Origin: a virus
Length of the DNA: 64,000 nucleotides
Virus genome (UHGV): UHGV-0026213
Strand: one strand, 5' to 3'
A program made the position numbers and the translations under genes. Below are positions 4,539-40,643 of the stretch, piece by piece; the stretch's first letter is position 1, and the number at the start of each line of letters is the position of its first letter. The notes beneath the pieces were generated by a model, which was given only the letters and a program-made list of their open reading frames with translations, was not told the DNA's origin and ran no database searches.

Positions 4539-4609
4539 GATTTCACTCTCAAATCTAGCGGCTGCTATACTGATTTGTGGGTAATGTAATTTCTCAAAAG
4601 GAAACACAA

Positions 4610-5944
4610 ATGGGATATTGGCAAAATCACATTGCATCAGTTGCGGATGCAAAGGTTGTAGCCGCAGAATCGATTAAATTCCAAGACAAAAAGAAGCTGG
4701 CAGAATTGGCTGATGTTATTGCTAAGTTTCGTGGTGCAGGCGATTTCAGTCCTGCAGGCTACGAAAGTGCCGGGGTTTCGGATTGGGTATTTAAGAATAT
4801 CGGCATTACGATTCACTTTAAGAACGGTAGCGAATTGGGTCTTGTTGACGTTGCTTTTGCAGGCGTGGAACCACCGAAATTGGATGCAAACAGTCCAATC
4901 ATTGCATCGATGACTCGCGCACTGTACGCAGGTAACAAAGACCTGGATATGTACAGTAAGTTCATCAAAGAAAACGAACTGAACACATCAATCGATGACA
5001 GCAGTGCAAAAATCAGTGGCGATTTAAGCAAAGTGGGTTCTCCGCTTTATCTTACCCCGGTGCTGCTGGAAAAATTAAATCTGACCGATCTGGAAATCGC
5101 CTCGGTGATTCTTCATGAAGTCGGCCACATCTATTATTATTTCCGTACGCTAATGCGTACCGTGGTGACTGATTTGCTGACAGATGCTGCGGCTAACCGC
5201 ATCATGGAAACAGAAGACCAAACTGTCCGCTTGCGCATTGTTAAAGACGTAGAGAAGATGCTGAACACGAAAGTGAATCAGCCGGAAACGATTTGTACCG
5301 AGTACAAAAAAGAAAACGTCTACATGCACTTAGTCACGCAGTTGTTATTAGATCGCCCGTTCATTAGCGGTAGTCAAGGCTTTGCTAACAGAACGTGGGA
5401 ACGTGCTGCGGATGATTTTGCTTCCCGTTTCGGAGGCGCTCCTTATCTGGCTTCTGCACTGTATAAAATGGAAACCAGTTCGTTCTATTTGCTGCGGAAC
5501 TCAGCGTATATGAACATGGGTGTCCATTTGACGGTAGAACTTTTCCGCGTGACTGCGCTGATAGTCTCTTCTACGATTCCAATTATTCCAGTGATTTCCG
5601 TGACGTTCGGAATGATCTTAAATGACCCGGATAACACCATTTACGATCCGCCGCAGCAGCGTTTTGAGGCAATGCGACGTACACTCGTTGAAGAACTCAA
5701 TACGATTAAAGACAAAAATACGAAAGCGGCTAACGAGCAACGTAAACGTATTTTAGATGGTATTGCGGTTATCGACAAGTTATTAGAAACCGTAAAAGAT
5801 AAAGATAACTTGTACCAGTTTATCTGGAATACTTTAACGCCGAAGGGTCGTCGCTCACGTGCTGCTGTTGATTATCAGCGTGCGATTGGGAAGTATATGT
5901 CGAACGATCTTCGTATTGCTTCAGCCATGTTTAATGTCGAATAA
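4610..5944 (+). CDS. putative zinc metallopeptidase-like protein (HEVGH motif) with hydrophobic C-terminal segment
   Basis: HExxH motif ILHEVGHIYY; hydrophobic stretch VTALIVSSTIPIIPVISVTFGMIL; start at MGYWQ after RBS-like GGAAACA. Confidence 0.45.
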   Translation: MGYWQNHIASVADAKVVAAESIKFQDKKKLAELADVIAKFRGAGDFSPAGYESAGVSDWVFKNIGITIHFKNGSELGLVDVAFAGVEPPKLDANSPIIASMTRALYAGNKDLDMYSKFIKENELNTSIDDSSAKISGDLSKVGSPLYLTPVLLEKLNLTDLEIASVILHEVGHIYYYFRTLMRTVVTDLLTDAAANRIMETEDQTVRLRIVKDVEKMLNTKVNQPETICTEYKKENVYMHLVTQLLLDRPFISGSQGFANRTWERAADDFASRFGGAPYLASALYKMETSSFYLLRNSAYMNMGVHLTVELFRVTALIVSSTIPIIPVISVTFGMILNDPDNTIYDPPQQRFEAMRRTLVEELNTIKDKNTKAANEQRKRILDGIAVIDKLLETVKDKDNLYQFIWNTLTPKGRRSRAAVDYQRAIGKYMSNDLRIASAMFNVE

Positions 5945-5958
5945 GTAAAGGTAAAATC

Positions 5959-6402
5959 ATGACGCATAAAGTTTCTTTAAATTCCCTGGTTCTGGACTTT
6001 AAACGTACGAACGAGGGTAAAGGTGTACAGGCACAACGCGCACTGACTGGCCTGGTCGCATTCGCATTGGCTTATAATACCGATATGCCCGATAATGGCC
6101 CGTTTGGGTCGAATGAAGTGTCGCAGCTAAAACTCCGTCCACTGATGAAAAATGTTGTTTCGGACGTAAACGAGCTTTATTGTGTCGATCTGGGCAGTAT
6201 TGAAGATTTGACAGTGGCACTGTTTTGTAACCGCTACGATAGCGCTTGGGGCGGCCGTCGCGCTATTGAAAACTTCTCTGTCCGTGAGATTTTCAATGAA
6301 GCCTTGGGCGACGATGTATGGGATACCGTTAATCTGTGGCTGGAACGTTTCATGGAAACGGTGAAATTCTATATGGAAGAAACGCGAGGCGAGCTGGTAT
6401 GA
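5959..6402 (+). CDS. hypothetical protein
   Basis: 147-codon ORF; stop overlaps start of next gene (ATGA). Confidence 0.5.
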   Translation: MTHKVSLNSLVLDFKRTNEGKGVQAQRALTGLVAFALAYNTDMPDNGPFGSNEVSQLKLRPLMKNVVSDVNELYCVDLGSIEDLTVALFCNRYDSAWGGRRAIENFSVREIFNEALGDDVWDTVNLWLERFMETVKFYMEETRGELV

Positions 6403-8069
6403 GTATGGAGATGACAGCAAACATTGCGCAACCGCAGTGGAAACTCGATGAACTTCCTGCACTGTTAGAACAGCGCATGGAGGAACGCATCGATTCTGTT
6501 AGCCAACTCAATCTCTACATGCAACGTAATGAAGCAGACCTGATTTACGGTTCTCGCCTTATCGCGCAAATTGAAGCGATCTTACGGGAAATACGTAATG
6601 CAGGGCTGAACCGTGATGTTGCTGTAGCGACTGAATCGTTGCGTCCTGGCACAATCCCGAAGGCGGTACAAAGTGTCCTGACGTCGAATTATTCCAAAAC
6701 ACACCAGAAAGAAACGGTGGTGGCATTAGAGTCTTACGCTAATTTTGGTAAGATTAGCCTTATCGTGATGGTGATGATGGGGATAATGAAAATCCTCAGT
6801 TGGATTATCAGCAACGCCGTTCCTTTTGCGGGTGCTGCGAATATTGACGGGAACGACTATCGCGAGAAACTGGAAGAGAAGTTGGCCGATGTTCCTTTCA
6901 CAGAGCGCCTGAAAACAACCGTACTGAAAGAAGTTTATCTGGTACTGTCAAAAGGTTTGAAAGACAGCGAGTTAAGCAACCTGGAGTTATCTCTTTCGCT
7001 GGCTGACGACGTTTTCGTGAACATGGAAGCTGAAGAGTTTCTAAATAAACTCGCCGCTGCGTTAGGTAAATCACCGTTTATCGATACGTTTAAGAACCAT
7101 CTTAAACGTCGGCAGAATGAGTTGCAGGTTATTCAGGATCTGCTCGATACGCTGCTTCGGACGAATATCGGCTACGGTGTATTTGACTTCGGGGTTGCTG
7201 AGGAAGTCTATAACGGTTTGCCGCCTGATGTGAAACGTGCTGGAGTGAACATTCCGTCAGATATTCAGTTCAACTTAATGAGCACGCTTCTTGACAGTTT
7301 TGCCGGTGCGCTTCAGGACTTAGACCAGTCGCTGAAAGACATCAAAACGTATTACCTGTCGAATAATCCGAAGGTAGGCACATCGCAAGAGAACCAAGTC
7401 GCCGCTGTGCATCTGGTTCGTGCGTTAGGCGAGATCAATGGCCGAATTGAATATACTGCCACGGAATTTGGACGACAGAAAGGTAGTCCTGGTCCAATTT
7501 TGCGTGTAAAAGACAAGGTTGAGCTTCTCGGTTATACCACACGTGAATTAGACAACGGTTGGATGATTGCATCAATCGGTGCTAACTCTTTCTTTGGCTC
7601 CACAACAAACCTGGAGATGATGCGCCAGGAGTTGAGCTTAAGTAACGGGGATTACCGTGAGCTGTTGGCATGTCTGATTACACTGGCACGTAGTGGTATC
7701 TCGGATGGCGTAGCGAATACTGCGCTAGACAAGTATAAGGTGTTGGAGAAACGTGTCGATCAGGTTGTAAAAACCTTGAAAGAGATGGCACGCCAATCAC
7801 GTTCTGGCGTCGACAGTCAGAAATGGCAGGCGATGGAACAGGCGTTTAAAGACCAAGTGACGCGAGGGGAGAACTTTAACCTTCACGGTCGTGAACTGAC
7901 CACGATGATGGTGTTAAACCCTGACCGTAATGTCTGGGATTCTGTTGCGCACAGTGCAAACATGATTAACATGTGGTGCAAGGCCGCAGGGTCTATGGCA
8001 ACGGTGTTGAAGCGTGCCAAGTCCAACCCACTTGTGAAAGGTGGGAAGTTCAATAAATTGATTGATTAA
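6399..8069 (+). CDS. hypothetical membrane-associated protein
   Basis: ATGA-coupled start; predicted TM segment ISLIVMVMMGIMKILSWIISNAV; followed by hairpin terminator at 8075. Confidence 0.5.
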   Translation: MSMEMTANIAQPQWKLDELPALLEQRMEERIDSVSQLNLYMQRNEADLIYGSRLIAQIEAILREIRNAGLNRDVAVATESLRPGTIPKAVQSVLTSNYSKTHQKETVVALESYANFGKISLIVMVMMGIMKILSWIISNAVPFAGAANIDGNDYREKLEEKLADVPFTERLKTTVLKEVYLVLSKGLKDSELSNLELSLSLADDVFVNMEAEEFLNKLAAALGKSPFIDTFKNHLKRRQNELQVIQDLLDTLLRTNIGYGVFDFGVAEEVYNGLPPDVKRAGVNIPSDIQFNLMSTLLDSFAGALQDLDQSLKDIKTYYLSNNPKVGTSQENQVAAVHLVRALGEINGRIEYTATEFGRQKGSPGPILRVKDKVELLGYTTRELDNGWMIASIGANSFFGSTTNLEMMRQELSLSNGDYRELLACLITLARSGISDGVANTALDKYKVLEKRVDQVVKTLKEMARQSRSGVDSQKWQAMEQAFKDQVTRGENFNLHGRELTTMMVLNPDRNVWDSVAHSANMINMWCKAAGSMATVLKRAKSNPLVKGGKFNKLID

Positions 8070-12399: not shown

Positions 12400-13506
12400 A
12401 TGTTAGAAAAAACGTTTGAGACAAGCGTTGTCTCTTTCCTCTCCAGACTTCCCATGCTGTTTCGTTCACGTGCGGAGTCGATGGAGGAATTTAACTCAGT
12501 GCTCTATAACGAGCACATTACCTTAGTCGAACAAAGCCTGCTGGGTTTAGATTACCTTCCGGGAATTCTGGAGAAAATCCAAATTTTGCTGGCAGGAAAC
12601 CAATTAACGGCTATCTCTCTGTTAACCGGTGTACCGGATGTTGACATTATCGGCACATTGGATCAGGTCAGTACACGTCGTAGTGCACTTGATAACGCAG
12701 TCCGCAGCGGTTCCCGCTTAGCAGCGCTTGCAGTCGGCGAATCTGCCCGTTATGGTTTACCATCATACGATAAAATCGGCATTGCAGTCGGCGAATCTTC
12801 CCGACGGGTCGCCCAGGAATCAAAAGGTTCGGTCAGTGGCGGGAAAGGTGATCCGATTAAACAGCTTTTCGATCAAGAAGGGTTGTCCAACGGGAAAATG
12901 TTCTCAGTAACATTCGAACGTGACGGTAATAAAGTCGAACTCCCAATGCGTTTACGTTTGGATGTGAAATCCTTACCGACCGAACAAATTGAAACACTGA
13001 TTGCGTTCAGTGACCAGACGAAAACATTCTGGGAACGTTGGCTGCGTGCACGCGTTGGCGCGTTGAGTTACGTAAAAGACATTGCGTTCTGTAACGACCT
13101 GGTAGAAGAATATCGTAAGAACCGTTATCGCGATAAGTCCGGTTATTACCGTAAGATGATGGAGAAGAAGAACGGTAACTGGTTGTCTGGTCTGCTGTCT
13201 TTGGCACCGTCAATCAATAACGCTTCTTCCGTTATGGTGGTTTCTCAAGACACCATCGACGGTTTGACCGCACAGCTAGGTGGCGAATTTGACGATTTCA
13301 ATATCCGTCAGCGTGTGTTCAAAGACACCTTGACCGTCTACTACGTTGTTGTGGACACCACCTGGAATCGTGTCACTATTTATACCCGTGGTCAGAACGG
13401 CTCTCAGGAACTCGATAAATCTGACTTTAGTAAATCGAAGTCTGGTAGCGCCGATGTAAATAAAATCATCGAAGCGTATCGCTCTGGCGCTCAGCCAGTT
13501 CTTTAA
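12400..13506 (+). CDS. hypothetical protein with short internal duplication
   Basis: RBS AGGAAA; near-identical 20-nt repeat at 12731 and 12784 encoding AVGESARY/AVGESSRR. Confidence 0.5.
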   Translation: MLEKTFETSVVSFLSRLPMLFRSRAESMEEFNSVLYNEHITLVEQSLLGLDYLPGILEKIQILLAGNQLTAISLLTGVPDVDIIGTLDQVSTRRSALDNAVRSGSRLAALAVGESARYGLPSYDKIGIAVGESSRRVAQESKGSVSGGKGDPIKQLFDQEGLSNGKMFSVTFERDGNKVELPMRLRLDVKSLPTEQIETLIAFSDQTKTFWERWLRARVGALSYVKDIAFCNDLVEEYRKNRYRDKSGYYRKMMEKKNGNWLSGLLSLAPSINNASSVMVVSQDTIDGLTAQLGGEFDDFNIRQRVFKDTLTVYYVVVDTTWNRVTIYTRGQNGSQELDKSDFSKSKSGSADVNKIIEAYRSGAQPVL

Positions 13507-14469: not shown

Positions 14470-15030
14470 ATGTTTGAGCACGATAGTCCTGAATTTAATG
14501 TTGCTGTAGAGCGCATTAAATCCTACATGTCGATTTTATCGAAAAACCCAATCGACACACACGATGACGAGGTTATTCACAAAACACTGGAAGCCGCCGC
14601 CGTTATTTTACCGTACTTTCGTCTGATGGCTGCTGATTCTTTGCAGCAAGTATTATATGACGAATATCCGCAGGTCGGATTTACCTTTAATACGTTTTAT
14701 AACGAAAGTGTAGATTTCTTGCTGGATGGTAAGCGACGTAATGTGACGTTAGGGCAGTGGTCGACTTTGCTGTCGTCGTATATGAACGATGTTCGTAACA
14801 CGAAGAATGTTGAACAGACGGGTGCATTAGGCTCGCGTCTATTAGCTGCTGCGTTTGGTCGCCGAGGTACTGTACGTAATATGGGCTCTGCTCACCAATC
14901 TGTTGAGTGTAGCAAACGTCTTTTATCTTATGCAGACCATGAACTGCTGGCACGCTGGATGACGCGCCCGAACGGGTTGTCCGACATGATCTCGTCGTTA
15001 GCAGTGTTTTTGAAAATCGCACGTCCCTAA
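14470..15030 (+). CDS. hypothetical protein
   Basis: 186-codon ORF with RBS GGAGAGG. Confidence 0.5.
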   Translation: MFEHDSPEFNVAVERIKSYMSILSKNPIDTHDDEVIHKTLEAAAVILPYFRLMAADSLQQVLYDEYPQVGFTFNTFYNESVDFLLDGKRRNVTLGQWSTLLSSYMNDVRNTKNVEQTGALGSRLLAAAFGRRGTVRNMGSAHQSVECSKRLLSYADHELLARWMTRPNGLSDMISSLAVFLKIARP

Positions 15031-15089
15031 GGGGGCCCCTCATTCTAGGGGCGTGTAATTGGGTTATATAACCAAAGGAAATAAACGAA

Positions 15090-16361
15090 ATGGCAAATTT
15101 CGCAAAAACTCGCGCCGCTCGTGAATCGATGGAAGCGGCCGATGAAGTAATCGACGGTATCAGCAACGTTGAACCGGCAGAAGAGAACCTGGACGTCCAA
15201 CTTGCGGACGTAGCATCTATCGACGGTCAGCTCGATCAGCTGGAAACCGATGGTGAAACCCTGGCTGCCGATACCGAGCGTACTGAAGACGCTATCGAAC
15301 AGGCGGAAGAAGCCGTTGCTAACGGTGAAGAAATGCCGGAAGAAGCGGTTGCCCTGCACGAAGTGGCACAGGAATCCATCGCACGTCGTTGGAACCTGGA
15401 GCGCACTAAACTGGCTCGCGAATCCTATCGCCGTGGTCGTGGCATGACTGCTGCTGCCCAGGAAGGTTGGAAAGAAACCCTGAAGGGTCTTTACGAGCGC
15501 TTCATTCAGTTCTGTAAAGAAGTGATCGCGAAGATCAAAGACCTGAAACTGAAATATTTCAACGTCGGTAAGACCGCGCAGAAACGTGCGAAGAAATATC
15601 AGGAAATGATCCGCAAGCTGGGCAAACAAGATAAAGACAACATTTCTGGTGGCTTTATCACCAAACTGTCCATCGAAGGTAAATTCGATGCTGCTGGCTC
15701 TATTGCCATCGCTAAAGAAGTGACCGCAGGTAAAGTGAAAGGTGCTATCGGTGCACTGGAAAAACAAGCTGGTGAAGCTGTGACCGCTGTTACCAAAGGT
15801 GACGATGACGCATTCAAAGCAATGCGTGGCGATCAGCCGGTAGAACTGTTTGGTAAAGCAGCGTCTAAACTGCATTCTCTGCCGAACTTTGAAAATGGTG
15901 ATGCGTCTAAACTGCTGGCACTGCCGGGCAACGCTTACGTTCAGGCCGGTACTAAAGAATTGGCTGGCGGCCACAAGTTCACCGCAATTGCTTTCATGAG
16001 CACCGGTGACGCTTCTGACGATAAAGAAGTGGCTACTCCGTCTGTTTCTGAAATGGCTGGCGCAGCATCTGCTCTGGAAGCAATCGGTAAAGGCTTCGAA
16101 GCCGTACTGAAAGATTTCCGTGCTTACGATTCTGAAATCGTGAAACTGCAACAGGCTGCTGAAAAAGCGTCCAACGCGCTGAACAACGAAAAAGACGAGA
16201 GTAAGTGGGAAGGACTGCGTAATGCACGTCAAGCTGCTGATCAGTCTGTGAAGAACTACCAGACCCTGAACCGTGCCGTTAGCTACGTAGCTAACACCGT
16301 CATTAGCGGTCTGAACGGTTACCTGGGTGCTGGTATCGGCGCGTACAAAAAGTCTAAATAA
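15090..16361 (+). CDS. abundant acidic-propeptide protein, paralogue 1 (putative internal head/ejection protein)
   Basis: Strong codon bias; acidic N-terminal ~90 aa ending in AQE at codons 93-95 (15366-15374); paralogous to next gene. Confidence 0.6.
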   Translation: MANFAKTRAARESMEAADEVIDGISNVEPAEENLDVQLADVASIDGQLDQLETDGETLAADTERTEDAIEQAEEAVANGEEMPEEAVALHEVAQESIARRWNLERTKLARESYRRGRGMTAAAQEGWKETLKGLYERFIQFCKEVIAKIKDLKLKYFNVGKTAQKRAKKYQEMIRKLGKQDKDNISGGFITKLSIEGKFDAAGSIAIAKEVTAGKVKGAIGALEKQAGEAVTAVTKGDDDAFKAMRGDQPVELFGKAASKLHSLPNFENGDASKLLALPGNAYVQAGTKELAGGHKFTAIAFMSTGDASDDKEVATPSVSEMAGAASALEAIGKGFEAVLKDFRAYDSEIVKLQQAAEKASNALNNEKDESKWEGLRNARQAADQSVKNYQTLNRAVSYVANTVISGLNGYLGAGIGAYKKSK

Positions 16362-16437
16362 TTAGACTTACGCTCGTACAGTTCTTGAAATAAATCAATA
16401 GGGGAACGACGTGTTCCCCTTAGAGGAAAAGCTTAAA

Positions 16438-17700
16438 ATGGCAAATTTCGCAAAAACTCGCGCCGCTCGTGAATCGATGGAAGCTACTGCCACTGTAGTT
16501 CCAGACGGCATCGAACTGCCAGCAGAATCTGTTGAAGGTACTCTGGCCGACATCGAGCATGATACCAAACCGATCGAAGCCCTGGACGCTGACGCTGAAC
16601 TGCTGGCAGAAGACGGTGACGAAACCGATGCTCAGCTGGAAGTTCTGGATGAAGCTCAGGCTGCTGCTGACGGTGAAGGTGCTGGCGAAGACGGTGAAGA
16701 ACCGATGGACGCCGAAGAAGATATGCCGGACGACGCTGCGACCGCGCTGGACGTTGCTCAGGAATCTATCCGTTCTCGTTGGAACTTCGAACACCGTTCT
16801 TCCGTTGCACACGAATCCTACGGTTCTCGTAACCGTCGTCAGGTTGCTCGTGAATCCCTGTGGGAAGACATTAAAGCCTTCCTGAAACGTATTTGGGAAT
16901 GGCTGAAAGAACAAGGCCGTAAGATCAAAGATCGTTGGCTGAAATTCTCCAACCAGGGTAAATCCATCCAGGCCCGTTCTAAGAAATACGACGAAGCTAT
17001 TCGTAAGCTGGGCAAACAGAAGAAAGATGAAATCTCTGGTGGCTTCATCAAGTCTCTGTCCGTCGACGGTAAATTCGTTGGTGACGATCTGGTGCGCCTG
17101 AAGAATATCCTGAACCACGTTTCCACCTACTACAGTGGTAACGTTCAGAGCTTCCTGAACAACGGTACGGATTTGGTTGGTAACGTTGTTAAAGGCGATG
17201 GCGCTAAAGTTGATAAACTGAAAGCAGACTTCGCTGCTCTGGCCAAAGAAGACGTTAACAAGTTCAAACTTGGTAACATGGCGCTGAAGATGGAATATGA
17301 CGAAGAAGGCGGCTTTAGCTCCAGCTACGTGGAAGCTGAAAACCGTGCTGAAACCAACGTTAAAACTCCGTCTGTTAGCGAACTGGCTAAGACCAATGCC
17401 TTCTTCAACGAAGTGGGTAAACAGATTGAGAAGAACGTTCTGGAATATCGTAAGACCGAACAGGCTCGCGAGAAATTCAGTCAGCAGATTGAGAAGCTGC
17501 TGAAAGAAATCGACAGCGTGAAGATCGACGAAAAACCGGAACTGACCGAATCTGTACGTACCGCACGTCGTTACATCAACAGCATTAACCAGGCAGTGTC
17601 TCTGGGCGAGAAAGTTATTGCCTCTACTCAGAAACATCTGGCTGGCGGTCTGAACGGCTATATCTCCGCAGGTATCGCTGCTTACGAAAAATCTAAATAA
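16438..17700 (+). CDS. abundant acidic-propeptide protein, paralogue 2 (putative internal head/ejection protein)
   Basis: Same N-terminus MANFAKTRAARESMEA; acidic region ending in AQE (16756-16764); RBS GAGGAAAAG. Confidence 0.6.
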   Translation: MANFAKTRAARESMEATATVVPDGIELPAESVEGTLADIEHDTKPIEALDADAELLAEDGDETDAQLEVLDEAQAAADGEGAGEDGEEPMDAEEDMPDDAATALDVAQESIRSRWNFEHRSSVAHESYGSRNRRQVARESLWEDIKAFLKRIWEWLKEQGRKIKDRWLKFSNQGKSIQARSKKYDEAIRKLGKQKKDEISGGFIKSLSVDGKFVGDDLVRLKNILNHVSTYYSGNVQSFLNNGTDLVGNVVKGDGAKVDKLKADFAALAKEDVNKFKLGNMALKMEYDEEGGFSSSYVEAENRAETNVKTPSVSELAKTNAFFNEVGKQIEKNVLEYRKTEQAREKFSQQIEKLLKEIDSVKIDEKPELTESVRTARRYINSINQAVSLGEKVIASTQKHLAGGLNGYISAGIAAYEKSK

Positions 17701-17718
17701 TCCCTGATTGTTTAGTAA

Positions 17719-17762
17719 GAGAACCACCCTGTAATGGGGTGGTTCTCCCCTTTCTTTTTTTT
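17719..17762 (+). terminator. intrinsic terminator
   Basis: GAGAACCACCC/GGGTGGTTCTC stem then T-run. Confidence 0.7.
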
Positions 17763-30224: not shown

Positions 30225-32519
30225 ATGAAAGATACCCGAATCTCTAATCTGGAGAAACTCGTACAAGCTGGTAACTCGCTGGTACAAAGCGTCATTAGTA
30301 ACAACAGTGCTGGCGAAATGTGGAACACCATCGTTGCCGGTGAATCTGTACGTAGCAACACGAAAGTTTTTGGTACCCTGCGTGACGATGCTGCACAGCA
30401 CTACGCAAACGCGTTTGCTGGCGGCAAGAAAATGTCCCACGCTGCGGAAGTTGCTTCTGCAATGATTCTGGGTGCTGCTGGTCACGGTATGGACCTGCAA
30501 GAAAAAGTAGCGCAAGAATACGCTAAACCAGAATTCCATAGCCGTTTTAACCTGGACGTTGCGATTCCTGGTTCCCAAGCTGGTAACGGCGACTGGGGCA
30601 AAGATCGTATGGTTGTTGCTCAGGAATACTACACCAACAAAGATTACGACAAAAACCTGGGTCTGACCTGGACGCTGAACGTACGTGCTCTGGAAACTCA
30701 GTCTCGTTTCGCTGAGACTCTGTTCCCGACCATCACCGTTGACACCAATGACGTTGGTATTACCGTACGTACCAAAGTGACCACCGTTTCTCGTGGTGTC
30801 ATGCACGCGTTACTGACCAAAGACGTTGTTGAAGATCATCGTCGTAACCTGCACGAAGCGCTGACTGACCACACCGTTCTTCAGGACGAAGCGATCAACA
30901 TCGTTCCTTATGTAATGGAAACCGGTGAAAACGCTGAATACTTCGTAAGCGAAGATCTGGTACCGAACGAATCTGTTCGCCTGGGTCGTGTACCTCCGTA
31001 CCCGACTAACTACCTGAGCTTTGCTAAAGACACTCTGAACCTGTTCCAGCTGTCTGCGCATCCGGGTATCGTTCAGGAAGGTTACGACGAAACTGATGAA
31101 ATCGCACCGGGTTGTGCTCTGGGCAGCCTGCTGATTTCCGTACGTAAACCGACCGAAGAAGCGAAAGCAGGTAAATTCATTAAACTGCACGTTCGTGACA
31201 TGCAGTTCGCAACCTTCCAGCGTCCCGCTGAAGGTGACGGCCGTGAGCTGGTTCTGCAATTCCGTCGTACTGCGTTCTCTCTGAATGCGAAAACTACCGA
31301 CTGGACTGGTGCGGCTATTCCGGCACTGCAAGCGCTGGGTCAGAACTCCTACACCCTGCGTTATGTGATCACCATCAACATGTCTCTGTTCACTACCGGT
31401 CAGTTCGGTGGTAAAGTTGACATCGCTGGTCACAAACTGGAAATCGAAGGTCTGTACGATGCTACCGGTAACAAAGTTGATACCAAATCTGGTACCGGCA
31501 AAGTTATCCTGGACGGTCTGAAACTTGAACTGATGGGCTGGCGCTTCGATGGTACTCGTACCAACGAAAACCGTCGTACCCAGGGTCTGCTGCTTGACCC
31601 AATCTGGGAACAAGAAAACTACAAACTGCAATACGGTTCTCCGATCCTGACCAAGTCTCCGGTTGGCGTTGAATACGACGATACCGAACGTCTGGACGAC
31701 CTGATTTCCGCAGTTAACATCCGTAACGAACAGCTGGCTATCACTCAGACGCTGTCTTACACCGAAGCGGTACGTAACGCTGCTGCAAGCATGATCACTC
31801 CGTGGGACAAACCGGCCATTCGTGGTCTGGGCCGTCACTGGGTTGCTCCGTGGTTCAAAGAGTCTGACTACAACGTTGATGAAGTTGTACAGTCCCTGGA
31901 TACCAAAGATGCACTGATCAACGCTCGTCAGGGCCTGGTACAGCGTATCGGTAATCAGGTAACTCAGGCTATCCAGGAATCTCGCTTCATTCCTGCGCTG
32001 CGTCTGTACACTGCCGATCCGGACATTCTGCCGAAAGTTGTTATTGCAACTGACGAACCGACTGCATCTATGCTGCTGCTGGTACAGGGCGACCAACGTC
32101 TGCTGGGCGATCGCTACGAATACGAAGTGATCACCACCAACGATGACCGCTGGCGTATCTACAACGCAGCTGACGGTTCCTGGACTCGTCGTCTGCAATG
32201 GTTCCTGAAAGTTCCGACTGCGGACGATGGTTCCTACAACGTGCTGAACTGGGGTAACCACTTCTGGTCTCCGATCATGGTTACCAACATCAACATTCAG
32301 CGTAACGGTTCTACCTCTAAAGAGCTGGCCGTACAGCCGCGTAACGCGCACATCTGCCACTGCCCGATCACTGGTCTGATCTGGGTTAAAGGTATCACCA
32401 AACTGGTTGAAGAAAAACTGGCTTACAATGTTTCTGTTGAACAGAACGGTCAGAAACAAACCGAAGGTGGTGTAGCAGGTAACGTTGCTGGCGAAGGCAA
32501 AGCTGCTGCTGGTAAGTAA
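30225..32519 (+). CDS. putative major capsid protein (764 aa)
   Basis: Very strong codon bias; size typical of phiKZ-like capsid proteins; N-terminal region has several A-x-E motifs (AQE twice); strong terminator at 32535. Confidence 0.55.
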   Translation: MKDTRISNLEKLVQAGNSLVQSVISNNSAGEMWNTIVAGESVRSNTKVFGTLRDDAAQHYANAFAGGKKMSHAAEVASAMILGAAGHGMDLQEKVAQEYAKPEFHSRFNLDVAIPGSQAGNGDWGKDRMVVAQEYYTNKDYDKNLGLTWTLNVRALETQSRFAETLFPTITVDTNDVGITVRTKVTTVSRGVMHALLTKDVVEDHRRNLHEALTDHTVLQDEAINIVPYVMETGENAEYFVSEDLVPNESVRLGRVPPYPTNYLSFAKDTLNLFQLSAHPGIVQEGYDETDEIAPGCALGSLLISVRKPTEEAKAGKFIKLHVRDMQFATFQRPAEGDGRELVLQFRRTAFSLNAKTTDWTGAAIPALQALGQNSYTLRYVITINMSLFTTGQFGGKVDIAGHKLEIEGLYDATGNKVDTKSGTGKVILDGLKLELMGWRFDGTRTNENRRTQGLLLDPIWEQENYKLQYGSPILTKSPVGVEYDDTERLDDLISAVNIRNEQLAITQTLSYTEAVRNAAASMITPWDKPAIRGLGRHWVAPWFKESDYNVDEVVQSLDTKDALINARQGLVQRIGNQVTQAIQESRFIPALRLYTADPDILPKVVIATDEPTASMLLLVQGDQRLLGDRYEYEVITTNDDRWRIYNAADGSWTRRLQWFLKVPTADDGSYNVLNWGNHFWSPIMVTNINIQRNGSTSKELAVQPRNAHICHCPITGLIWVKGITKLVEEKLAYNVSVEQNGQKQTEGGVAGNVAGEGKAAAGK

Positions 32520-37925: not shown

Positions 37926-40643
37926 TTAGAGAGTTTCGTCGGCGTTGTCGTCTGTACCGGTATCCGTCTCGTCTGTGTCTTCAGCAGAAACGTCTTCTTC
38001 CGTTGTCGTATCGGTTTCCGTCGTTTCATCATCAGACATGTCCAAGTCTTCATCACCGCCCATATCGTCACCACCTAAGTCCTCATCGCCCCCTAAGCCA
38101 CCGTCGTCTTCAGAGCCGCCACCGAAGTCGTTACCCCCGACAAAGTTATTGGCGTCCTCAGGATTCAAATCAGCCGCTTTTGCTAAGGTTTCAACTTTAC
38201 CTGTTGTGCGTTTAGCTAACTGAATCAGCGTCTTCGATGCTGCTGCGATTTCATCAGAAATCATCTTGACGTTTTCACCACGTTTATCTTCGTCGTAGAT
38301 CAAATCAAACAGATCGGTTTCGATGCCTTGATTACGCAGCCAGTTACGCGTATAGAACGATTTAATCATCGTCTTGAGATCATCAGGCTGCATTTCGATA
38401 CCTTCATTCTGAAGCATATTCGAAATGTCGTCGGTAACAACCAGATCCGCCAGTTTCTCAATGAACTCATAGCGTTTATCAAACAGATCCGCTTGTGAAG
38501 AAGAAGCTGATGTGTCTGGTGGTGGTAAGGTGACTTTCATGCCATTGATGAACTTCGCCAGATACTCTGACGTCTGTTTGGTCAAGTCTTCACCTGTTAC
38601 ATTAGGATTCTGATTGCGAATATATTCAACGATAACACGAATCAGTTCTGCTTGTAACTTAGGAGAGGCTTGCAAACTGTTTGTCACGTAGCGTGTTAAC
38701 GGCGTAGATAGGATTTCTTGTTTTTTCACGATTTGCTGAGTCACCAGCAGTGACTTGGAATAAATCTGTGAAGCAAATTCCAGGTTTTCCGGCGTCAAAA
38801 CAAGATCCGGGTCTACACACGCGATGTGACAAGTACGACGGAGTAAGTTTTCATCGATTTGTTGATCGGGCACTTTATACTCAGGCGTTGTGTCCGAAAC
38901 CGACACTTTATGACTGGCGTAGTATTCATTACCCGTCACGTTAAATGCAATCCCGGCATTAGCCCCCATTGACCAAGCGTCATTGATATCACCCCACATC
39001 GGTAAACGACGGTTATAGGAGTTGAGAATATCTGATTTAACTTGGTCAACCGTTTTCTGACCGTTCATATCGTCTGGCGATAACTCAATGTCGTATTGCA
39101 TGTGACGTGCTGAGTTCAACACTGAGGAGTTCATCGTTGCGAACAACAGTGCCATCCTGACCGTAGAGATGATAAAGGAACGTTCGGTGATAGACACCCC
39201 AATACCATCTTCGTTAAAGTCCGTTGCAAAGTAGCACAAGTTATTAGCCGGGATATAGACAACCTGTGTGTGACGTTTTGCGAGGTGACGTGCCAGCAGA
39301 ATACGACCGAAAGTTTCGGTAATTTTCATGCTGATTTCAGCTCCACCCAATGCCTGGCTTAACGCACGGGTAAATTCGTTCTCAGCAATCTCGCTACAAC
39401 GGGCACTTAAACGGTTGGCGATCTCTGGCGTTATACGAGAGGTATTACCCAAACCTAAATTAGAGCGGTTGATAATACTGTCCGTCATGCCGTCGTTATT
39501 AAGGTAGTTCATAAAGTTCGCGTCCCCGTAAAGTGAAGAACGTGAGTTGATGAAGTTACCCATATCGTCAATAATGGTCAGAAACCCAATAGGGTTACGA
39601 ACGTCGTCGCCGATAACCAACGGTGCGGTAGACTCAGCAGGCAATAGACATTCGAAATATTCGATTTGGTTGTTTTCATTCATCGAAATAATCGGAATAT
39701 CGCCATAAGTCTGAGTTTTTGGTGTACCTTTGTACGCTTCGTTCAGATCGCCTAAGTTAATGAAGCCTTTTTCAGCCGCATCACGCTGACGATCGTTAAA
39801 CTGTTGATTAACTTCGTACGGCGTAGCACCTGTCGGTGTGGCAGGCTTTTCATATGCGGCTTGCTCTAATTGGCCGTAGAGACCAGTACGTGCGTTCTCA
39901 TGCGCGATTCGACGATAAGCATGGGGTAGTAACGTGATACGTGGGTTGTCGGTGATCGAGATGTCCATTTCGAACTTATCTGAGAACATCTTATCGTGGT
40001 TACTGAAATTGATTTTCAGCGACTGTGGTCCTTTAACAGGGCCACGAACACGACTCAGTATAGATTCCACACCTACGCGTTGCCCGTCTTCTTGCTCGTT
40101 GATTGGACCGAGAATACCGAGCTGGTCTTCGAAATAGGCAGCTTGAGAACGACGTACGGATTCGGTAGCGACTTTGGCGTCTAAACCGAACAACTGGTCA
40201 AATCCGTTGTCCGAGATTATCATCACTGGACTTGCGCCTTTTGTTTTTAACGCGTCGTAAATCCACTGATATAATTTCTTAGGTAATTGACGTACGTTAT
40301 CATGATAATCACGCGTTGGTGTCAGTAGGTCATTACGTAAGTCAATTGGAATGTCTGCGATGTTGTCGTAAATCAACGTGGTGTTGATTAAGTCTTTTGT
40401 CGACAGCAAGCTCGAAGTTGCAATGGTAACAATCGTTTCGAGTTCAGGTAACGCATCAAAGATACGTTCCGCATTTTTGATAGTACGAATACGCGAACTT
40501 ACAATTCCTGCAAGTTCCTGACGTGTTGGCGTAGAACCACCCTCGCTACGCGTACCGCGTTGTTGCTGGGGTGCTGGGCCCGTAGTTTTACGAAGAATTG
40601 CAGCTACGGCGGGGTCGCCCGTTAATTTACTAATATCGTCCAT
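37926..40643 (-). CDS. large virion protein candidate (905 aa), possibly portal; poly-acidic Gly-rich C-terminal tail
   Basis: Long minus-strand ORF a few genes from capsid candidate; C-terminus GGDEDLGGDDMGGDEDL...; portal assignment is inference from size and position only. Confidence 0.4.
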   Translation of the reverse strand: MDDISKLTGDPAVAAILRKTTGPAPQQQRGTRSEGGSTPTRQELAGIVSSRIRTIKNAERIFDALPELETIVTIATSSLLSTKDLINTTLIYDNIADIPIDLRNDLLTPTRDYHDNVRQLPKKLYQWIYDALKTKGASPVMIISDNGFDQLFGLDAKVATESVRRSQAAYFEDQLGILGPINEQEDGQRVGVESILSRVRGPVKGPQSLKINFSNHDKMFSDKFEMDISITDNPRITLLPHAYRRIAHENARTGLYGQLEQAAYEKPATPTGATPYEVNQQFNDRQRDAAEKGFINLGDLNEAYKGTPKTQTYGDIPIISMNENNQIEYFECLLPAESTAPLVIGDDVRNPIGFLTIIDDMGNFINSRSSLYGDANFMNYLNNDGMTDSIINRSNLGLGNTSRITPEIANRLSARCSEIAENEFTRALSQALGGAEISMKITETFGRILLARHLAKRHTQVVYIPANNLCYFATDFNEDGIGVSITERSFIISTVRMALLFATMNSSVLNSARHMQYDIELSPDDMNGQKTVDQVKSDILNSYNRRLPMWGDINDAWSMGANAGIAFNVTGNEYYASHKVSVSDTTPEYKVPDQQIDENLLRRTCHIACVDPDLVLTPENLEFASQIYSKSLLVTQQIVKKQEILSTPLTRYVTNSLQASPKLQAELIRVIVEYIRNQNPNVTGEDLTKQTSEYLAKFINGMKVTLPPPDTSASSSQADLFDKRYEFIEKLADLVVTDDISNMLQNEGIEMQPDDLKTMIKSFYTRNWLRNQGIETDLFDLIYDEDKRGENVKMISDEIAAASKTLIQLAKRTTGKVETLAKAADLNPEDANNFVGGNDFGGGSEDDGGLGGDEDLGGDDMGGDEDLDMSDDETTETDTTTEEDVSAEDTDETDTGTDDNADETL

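Follow-up and report, generated by a model that had tools for sequence, protein, structure and literature searches.

What do the two adjacent genes at positions 15,090 to 17,700 of the virus genome UHGV-0026213 encode, and where are their products cut on maturation? We addressed this question in a stretch of 64,000 nucleotides of that genome, hereafter the window, and refer to the two genes as A and B. Gene A (15090-16361, + strand) is an open reading frame (ORF) for a precursor of 423 amino acids and 45.5 kDa. Gene B (16438-17700, + strand) specifies a precursor of 420 amino acids and 46.6 kDa and starts with the ATG at 16438. A mechanical ORF listing had B running from GTG 16411 to 17700. 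We rejected this start, which sits in a hairpin and shows no conservation among relatives. The ATG at 16438 is preceded by an AGAGGA ribosome-binding site, and an equivalent MANF/MNF start is present in every relative.

An earlier note, made from the sequence alone, had described A and B as tandem paralogues that begin alike, carry a D/E-rich N-terminal region, and have an AQE-S motif immediately before a basic region. All these observations held. The two ORFs follow each other on the + strand, and because their products share 35% identity (E = 2e-54), the paralogy is well beyond chance. The first 16 residues, MANFAKTRAARESMEA, are common to both proteins. Residues 1-95 of A contain 28 D/E vs 4 K/R, and residues 1-109 of B contain 35 D/E vs 4 K/R, with an isoelectric point (pI) of 4.05 in either case. 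The AQE codons are at 15366-15374 in A (residues 93-95) and at 16756-16764 in B (residues 107-109), and the next residue is Ser in both proteins. The 30 residues that come right after AQE-S are basic in A as in B, with a pI of 11.6.

Profile searches assigned both proteins to a known family. A and B matched PF12699 (phiKZ_IP, phiKZ-like phage internal head proteins) with 247.7 and 200.2 bits, respectively, for a cut-off of 27, and both covered model positions 2-387 of 387. They also matched PHROG 2497, "internal head protein", with E = 8e-146 for A and E = 6e-119 for B. At the level of individual genes, A was 69.3% identical to gp53 of Salmonella phage SPN3US and B was 62.5% identical to gp54. 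Both values exceed the 35% identity between A and B themselves, that is, each gene is closer to its SPN3US counterpart than to its neighbor, as one-to-one orthology implies.

Gene order gave the same picture. A and B are flanked as in SPN3US, with homologues of gp50, gp51, and gp52 upstream and a dihydrofolate reductase gene downstream. More broadly, the gene order of the window parallels that of SPN3US from gp45 to gp81 and beyond, that of Erwinia phage Asesino from gp67 to gp75, and, at a wider distance, that of phiKZ from gp89 to gp93. The gene just upstream of A (14470-15030) is homologous to gp52 of SPN3US and gp91 of phiKZ (PF25618, weak match; PHROG 8199). Therefore, the arrangement of gp89-gp90-gp91 with internal head proteins after them has been kept from phiKZ to this phage. 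DNA identity was ~77% between the A/B region and Asesino gp70/gp71, and ~79% to SPN3US over the first 750 bases, which comprise the end of the upstream gene, the leader, and the 5' half of A. Two matching places were found in 62 of the 64 phage records having a tblastn match, consistent with a conserved pair, and the homologues were in tandem in all 11 loci inspected. Collectively, these data make it very probable that A and B are orthologous to gp53 and gp54 of SPN3US ("paralog family A") and represent protease-cleaved internal head proteins that are ejected, this being the best explanation for the whole set of observations. The earlier note had proposed internal head or ejection proteins, and its proposal is supported by PF12699, PHROG 2497, and the syntenic gp53/gp54 orthology. 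SPN3US and phiKZ already offered internal head proteins of this type, and the pair is nothing new in kind.

Much is known about the SPN3US pair. gp53 and gp54 are each present in >600 copies per capsid (PMC5694885, PMC7552025). In the head, only the capsid protein gp75 is more abundant, and gp75, gp53, and gp54 are the top three head proteins (PMC7552025, PMC5694885). Together, they amount to >1,200 copies of basic helical proteins inside the head. Both are considered ejection proteins and occupy the interior of the shell together with the DNA (PMC5694885). In protease-deficient SPN3US capsids, gp53 and gp54 make a T=1 inner shell (PMC7552025). Their incorporation requires gp243, and gp243-mutant heads, which are devoid of gp53 and gp54, are unstable. 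Cleavage by the prohead protease gp245 takes place after A-x-E, with a preference for S at P1' and for V or A at P4 (PMC10052503). Recombinant gp245 cleaves gp53 in vitro, and the propeptides stay uncut in protease mutants (PMC7411985). Mature masses estimated by sodium dodecyl sulfate-polyacrylamide gel electrophoresis (SDS-PAGE) are 31.5 kDa for gp53 and 30.3 kDa for gp54.

A and B resemble gp53 and gp54 in being arranged in tandem at an equivalent place in the genome, in having N-terminal peptides that are identical within the pair, and in the succession of an acidic segment, a basic linker, and a helical body. The verified A-x-E sites are conserved, predicted mature masses are similar, and the codon bias is consistent with abundance. 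The two pairs differ in the N-terminal peptide itself, which is MANFVKSKLARESVE in SPN3US vs MANFAKTRAARESMEA here, and in the match between the first 48 nucleotides of the two genes, which is 40/48 in SPN3US vs 47/48 here. Moreover, gp54 has AQE-124 where B has AHE-126, the B propeptide being 2 residues longer. The closest isolate-phage relatives are gp70/gp71 of Asesino and gp237/gp238 of phiEaH2 (genus Erskinevirus), all annotated "internal head protein". They share the gene order and, for A, 73-74% amino acid identity (74% for Asesino gp70) and ~77% nucleotide identity. In contrast with the present pair, the N-terminal peptides have drifted apart within each of these pairs, which are known by annotation only.

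Where would the precursors be cut? The earlier note had pointed out that AQE fits the motif of the phiKZ-type prohead protease. This fits with the literature, in which gp53 and gp54 are published gp245 substrates (PMC10052503). Cuts detected by mass spectrometry are at ARE-12, AQE-95, and AQE-125 in gp53, with a mature N-terminus GWKETLKDLFER, and at AQE-124 and ARE-137 in gp54, with a mature N-terminus SLWDDIK (PMC10052503 Table 2). AQE-107 of gp54 matches the motif and is absent from the sites detected by mass spectrometry (PMC10052503). Cleavage near the N-terminus, at ARE-12, had been inferred for both gp53 and gp54 (PMC5694885). All five verified gp53/gp54 sites retain A-x-E and their flanks in A and B (AARE-12, VAQE-95 followed by SIARRW, AAQE-125, VAHE-126, and VARE-139). 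They are also kept in an alignment of 12 phages, with minor substitutions at some sites in CR5 and Phobos. This conservation, and homology to cuts established by mass spectrometry, give the prediction its weight. By itself, A-x-E provides a weak signal when proteins are rich in A and E: we counted 13 A-x-E in A for 6.6 expected and 9 in B for 5.1 expected.

In A, the first predicted cut, near the N-terminus, follows ARE-12 and precedes S (15117-15125, + strand). It aligns with the verified ARE-12 of gp53, A-R-E is kept there in 12/12 phages, and hhalign placed it on SLE-13 of phiKZ gp93. The second, after AQE-95 and before S, is a predicted intra-propeptide cut that ends the acidic segment and aligns with the verified AQE-95 of gp53; the site reads VAQE then SIR in 10/12 phages and VAGE then SIR in 2/12. 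A further candidate, in the basic linker, is ARE-111 followed by S (15414-15422, + strand). It has no counterpart in the SPN3US mass spectrometry data. The motif is kept in 12/12 phages as ARE and S, with L or V at P4 and Y or F after the S; it fits the P1' preference for S (PMC10052503) and has L at P4 here vs the reported V/A. The predicted maturation cut is after AQE-125 and before G (15456-15464, + strand) and aligns with AQE-125 of gp53. The mature N-terminal peptide of gp53, GWKETLKDLFER, corresponds to GWKETLKGLYER in A (GWKETLK...). Mature A would thus span residues 126-423 (15465-16358, + strand), with a mass of 31.9 kDa and a pI of 9.3.

The predicted series in B is similar. It starts with ARE-12 before S (16465-16473, + strand), in the same peptide as in A, a site found in 12/12 phages. 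AQE-109 before S (+ strand) is a candidate intra-propeptide cut equivalent to gp54 AQE-107, and VAQE then SIR occurs there in 12/12 phages. AHE-126 before S (16807-16815, + strand) is a predicted intra-propeptide cut aligned with the verified AQE-124 of gp54; the local context is VAHE then SYG, and P2 is Q, R, or H among phages. Last comes the predicted maturation cut after ARE-139 and before S (16846-16854, + strand), aligned with ARE-137 of gp54. There, VARE-139 is followed by SLWEDIKA, and SLWEDIK in B corresponds to the mature SLWDDIK of gp54. Mature B would comprise residues 140-420 (16855-17697, + strand), with a mass of 31.6 kDa and a pI of 9.4. Hence, predicted mature masses are 31.9 kDa for A and 31.6 kDa for B vs 31.5 and 30.3 kDa in SPN3US. 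The propeptides, predicted to have 13.7 kDa in A (residues 1-125) and 15.0 kDa in B (residues 1-139), would each be made of an acidic segment and a 30-residue basic linker.

This modifies one conclusion of the earlier note, namely that the propeptide ends at AQE-S. The motif is a good one, since AQE-95 matches a verified cut in gp53, but the maturation boundary would lie 30 residues downstream. AQE-125 and ARE-139 are conserved with their flanks, and therefore the basic stretch that follows AQE-S belongs to the propeptide. We thus predict that AQE-S is an internal propeptide cut rather than the maturation boundary, that the propeptides of A and B are cut several times, and that, by homology, the mature N-termini are G126 in A and S140 in B. 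We also considered a single maturation cut after AQE-95 in A and AQE-109 in B, which would make the mature proteins begin with the basic stretch, SIARRW or SIRSRW. VAQE-SIR is the best-conserved motif common to both paralogues, VAQE then S fits the preferred V-A-x-E/S logo, and, as mentioned, AQE-95 is actually cut in gp53. Yet the abundant mature forms in SPN3US begin at G126 (57 peptide-spectrum matches) and S138, the SDS-PAGE masses of 31.5 and 30.3 kDa agree with the downstream cuts, and A and B have kept these sites along with the residues around them. A single upstream cut is consequently very improbable.

We extended the comparison to other protease substrates of SPN3US whose orthologues lie in the window: gp45 (4577-5944, + strand), gp47 (6336-8069, + strand), gp50 (12400-13506, + strand), the major capsid protein gp75 (30225-32519, + strand; 78% identity), and the portal protein gp81 (37926-40643, - strand). 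Sites of SPN3US gp50 and gp47 were located by motif, RefSeq numbering differing from that of the paper as a result of different start codons. A-x-E was found at all seven verified N-terminal sites of these five orthologues. The P2 residue had changed at some of them, from ATE in SPN3US to AQE here in the capsid protein and gp50, and from AQE to AHE in the portal protein. The seven other-substrate sites being also A-x-E, the same protease specificity can be argued for this phage. Over 12 verified N-terminal sites in seven substrates, conservation shows what appears to be an intact transfer of the A-x-E rule of the SPN3US protease to a diverged relative. As regards the protease itself, no homologue of gp245 was found in the 64-kb window (best tblastn E = 4.9), and a gp243 homologue, also looked for in the window, was not found either. 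In SPN3US, the protease gene is ~167 kb away from gp53.

We also obtained an AlphaFold2 model of A based on a 38-sequence alignment (mean predicted local distance difference test 82.8; predicted template modeling score 0.81). The model contains long helices at residues 34-77, 84-100, 119-175, 201-236, 319-364, and 370-417 and a small beta-sheet at 272-304. Confidence is low around residues 101-118, in the linker region where the cuts are grouped. The fold matched >100 internal head or virion proteins of jumbo phages in BFVD, and a sequence search of the PDB with A returned no match at E up to 1.

The following sequence of events can be proposed. A and B would be expressed late and at the level of the capsid protein, as suggested by a codon bias equal to that of the major capsid gene. 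The 45-47 kDa precursors would be built into the prohead, presumably as in SPN3US, where an inner shell made of them lines the capsid. A gp245 orthologue of MEROPS family S80, encoded outside the window, would then cut several times after A-x-E, at positions given by homology: in A, at ARE-12, AQE-95, probably ARE-111, and last AQE-125; in B, at ARE-12, probably AQE-109, AHE-126, and last ARE-139. Cleavage would remove the acidic segment (pI 4) together with the 30-residue basic linker. Judging from SPN3US and phiKZ, the mature ~32-kDa A and B, basic and mostly helical, would stay with the packaged DNA and be ejected with it.

The last step deserves a closer look at Pseudomonas phage phiKZ. 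In this phage, the inner body proteins gp93, gp95, gp97, and gp162, as well as gp92, gp94, and gp163, share PF12699 and a helix-rich fold with A and B. Family members are found downstream of gp89-gp90-gp91 homologues in both cases, and the phiKZ proteins are cut by an S80 prohead protease, first at residue 12 or 13, packaged, and injected with the DNA. Cleavage sites of gp93 are those given in PMC5694885 and PMC11297242. Differences are also found: the similarity is seen by profile methods only (hhalign E = 7e-7), phiKZ has seven paralogues, at lower copy numbers, vs two here, the protease motif is S/A/G-x-E instead of strictly A-x-E, and phiKZ has a cylindrical inner body that is unseen in SPN3US. 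On injection, both gp93 and gp95 enter the host with the DNA, and gp93 stays with it in the early infection vesicle (bioRxiv 10.1101/2024.03.24.586471). From the imaging of these two proteins and the internal location of gp53 and gp54, we infer that A and B are ejected with the DNA as well.

Some points weigh against this assignment and deserve to be set together. Ejection was imaged only for the phiKZ members of the family and not for gp53 and gp54 themselves. The protease and gp243 genes are outside the window, and their presence is assumed from relatives. Every cleavage position proposed for this phage is transferred by homology. Last, B has AHE where relatives have AQE or ARE; the portal site likewise has H at P2.

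A different fate for part of the propeptide has to be considered. The acidic fragment, between ARE-12 and AQE-95 or AQE-109, might stay on the inner surface as a cementing minor capsid protein, so that each precursor would give two products. In the phiKZ cryo-electron microscopy structure, residues 14-84 of gp93, which start right behind the first protease cut, bridge hexamers on the inner capsid surface as a cementing fibre (PMC11297242). hhalign superimposed residues 8-186 of A on 9-218 of gp93 with a probability of 91.8% and with ARE-12 on SLE-13, and AlphaFold2 predicts ordered helices at 34-77 and 84-100 of A. SPN3US heads also keep unusually many gp53 propeptide peptides, which the SPN3US authors read as incomplete clearance. 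Several observations go in the opposite direction: A has no sequence-level match in the PDB, >600 copies exceed the 180 gp93 sites of a phiKZ capsid (3 per asymmetric unit), and the acidic segment is far more acidic than a typical beta-strand-forming arm. We therefore regard a retained acidic fragment as a rather doubtful possibility, to be entertained tentatively.

It can also be asked whether building the T=27 shell, as scaffold or core proteins, is the main role of A and B, which would then persist in the virion incidentally and without a function after injection. The T=1 inner shell in protease-deficient SPN3US capsids and a production profile like that of the capsid protein speak for it, as does the instability of gp243-mutant heads that lack gp53 and gp54. 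Unlike classical scaffolds, however, the mature fragments are found at >600 copies each in DNA-filled heads, and the phiKZ paralogues are demonstrably injected and remain with the DNA. Besides, scaffold and ejection roles are not mutually exclusive. A role that would be mainly that of a scaffold seems unlikely to us, and we retain the view that A and B are internal head proteins meant for ejection.

Why do the two proteins start with the same peptide? The identity extends to DNA: a block of 47 nucleotides is found at 15090-15136 in A, where it encodes MANFAKTRAARESMEA, a putative prohead-targeting signal, and identically at 16438-16484 in B (both + strand). It is the longest exact block shared by the two genes, the next longest having 14 nucleotides. 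Over the first 48 nucleotides, A and B are identical at 47/48 positions here vs 30-43/48 in 11 relatives. Among positions with the same residue in A and B, codons are identical at 13/14 within the block vs 59% elsewhere (P ~0.007). In the N-terminal peptides of 14-16 residues from 12 phages, A/B similarity was 0.83 within the same phage vs 0.66 between different phages; the permutation test for this within-phage co-variation gave p ~5e-5, a value not corrected for phylogeny. This suggests that the shared N-terminal block reflects gene conversion or concerted evolution of a common signal, and it extends a remark made for SPN3US in PMC5694885.

The 16-residue shared peptide, which contains the ARE-12 site, probably serves both proteins as a signal for targeting or assembly. 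In phage T4, the internal proteins IPI-III and Alt offer an analogy, already drawn in PMC5694885. There, a short N-terminal peptide common to packaged proteins is removed by a prohead protease (gp21) that cleaves after Glu, and the basic mature products enter the host together with the injected DNA. T4 differs in that its proteins have no sequence or fold relation to A and B and are of other sizes and copy numbers. Also, its targeting peptides are of ~10 residues and come without a long acidic propeptide, and the targeting role here is putative. A bolder idea is that the propeptide is more than waste, codons 1-16 being maintained by conversion for a shared, co-evolving docking partner in the prohead and the acidic fragment being retained as a cement lining the capsid. 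Such a combination is conceivable, but we would not expect it to hold.

As the earlier note had recognized, A and B are strongly biased in codon usage. Wright's effective number of codons (Nc) was 34.2 for A, 33.1 for B, and 32.3 for the major capsid gene, the lowest in the window, vs at least 45.8 in the 53 other window ORFs of at least 150 amino acids. This bias matches the published abundance ranking of gp75, gp53, and gp54 (PMC7552025, PMC5694885). With codon bias as a proxy, high copy numbers in the head may be expected for A and B too.

The same bias bears on two long ORFs on the opposite strand. One of 395 amino acids (15045-16232, - strand) lies in codon register with A, and one of 435 amino acids (16420-17727, - strand) lies in codon register with B. 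Such lengths are unusual for random sequence, and these ORFs could be taken for real overlapping genes. In the antisense codon register, stops arise only from sense TTA, CTA, and TCA codons. A and B have none, vs 20.1 and 20.0 expected, respectively, and the antisense ORFs are exactly aligned with the codons of these two genes. The capsid gene, with 1 such codon vs 36 expected, likewise has a codon-aligned antisense ORF of 549 amino acids opposite to it (30810-32459, - strand), that is, the same artefact. Furthermore, for A, only 14-16 of 214-240 changed codons were synonymous in the antisense frame vs 102-114 in the sense frame. In the comparison with four relatives, synonymous changes made up ~6% in the antisense frame vs ~35-50% in the sense frame, and the antisense frame has 0-2 stops in relatives. 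Overlapping genes are thus next to impossible here. As the earlier note had suspected, these ORFs are not genes and result from codon choice in A and B.

We also looked at noncoding elements around the pair. The leader of A (15031-15089, + strand) is highly conserved and comprises GGGGGCCCC, then AGGGGCGTGTAATT, the palindrome GGTTATATAACC, and an AAGGAA ribosome-binding site, with 31 invariant columns among 12 phages. The AGGGGCGTGTAATT motif is unique in the window. A repeated promoter was rejected on the grounds of this single occurrence, the motif being gene-specific, and a scan for sigma-70-like promoters found none. Between A and B, a stem-loop (16400-16420, + strand; AGGGGAAC-GACGT-GTTCCCCT) directly precedes the ribosome-binding site of B. 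It is kept in 12/12 phages despite differing sequences, with compensatory changes in 3/6 consensus pairs, and a terminator scan detected it too, on the opposite strand. It could be a processing, stabilizing, or attenuating element. Directly after B, a terminator-like hairpin (17719-17757, + strand) has a 13-bp GC-rich stem followed by T-rich CCCTTTCTTT, and it likely terminates the A-B transcript.

As to distribution, A, B, and the capsid protein occur in identical form in many assemblies of Salmonella, Shigella, E. coli, and Enterobacter isolates and in ENA metagenomes. In the isolate assemblies, the A and B copies are named "hypothetical protein". The nearest isolate phage is ~74-77% identical. 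This occurrence pattern fits the "Seoul-like persistent jumbo phages" (bioRxiv 10.1101/2024.12.31.630880). Incidentally, we noticed that records of the Salmonella phages SPFM20 and SPFM12 contain "proteins" of ~400 amino acids made of gp53 segments of ~10-30 residues in reverse order, from C- to N-terminal pieces. These look like an annotation or record artefact.

What, then, does the assignment bring? A and B can now be named gp53/gp54-type internal head or ejection proteins, and the significance of this beyond annotation is small. If the idea of a retained acidic fragment were true, one precursor would give both a piece that stabilizes the shell and a protein that is injected in association with the DNA.

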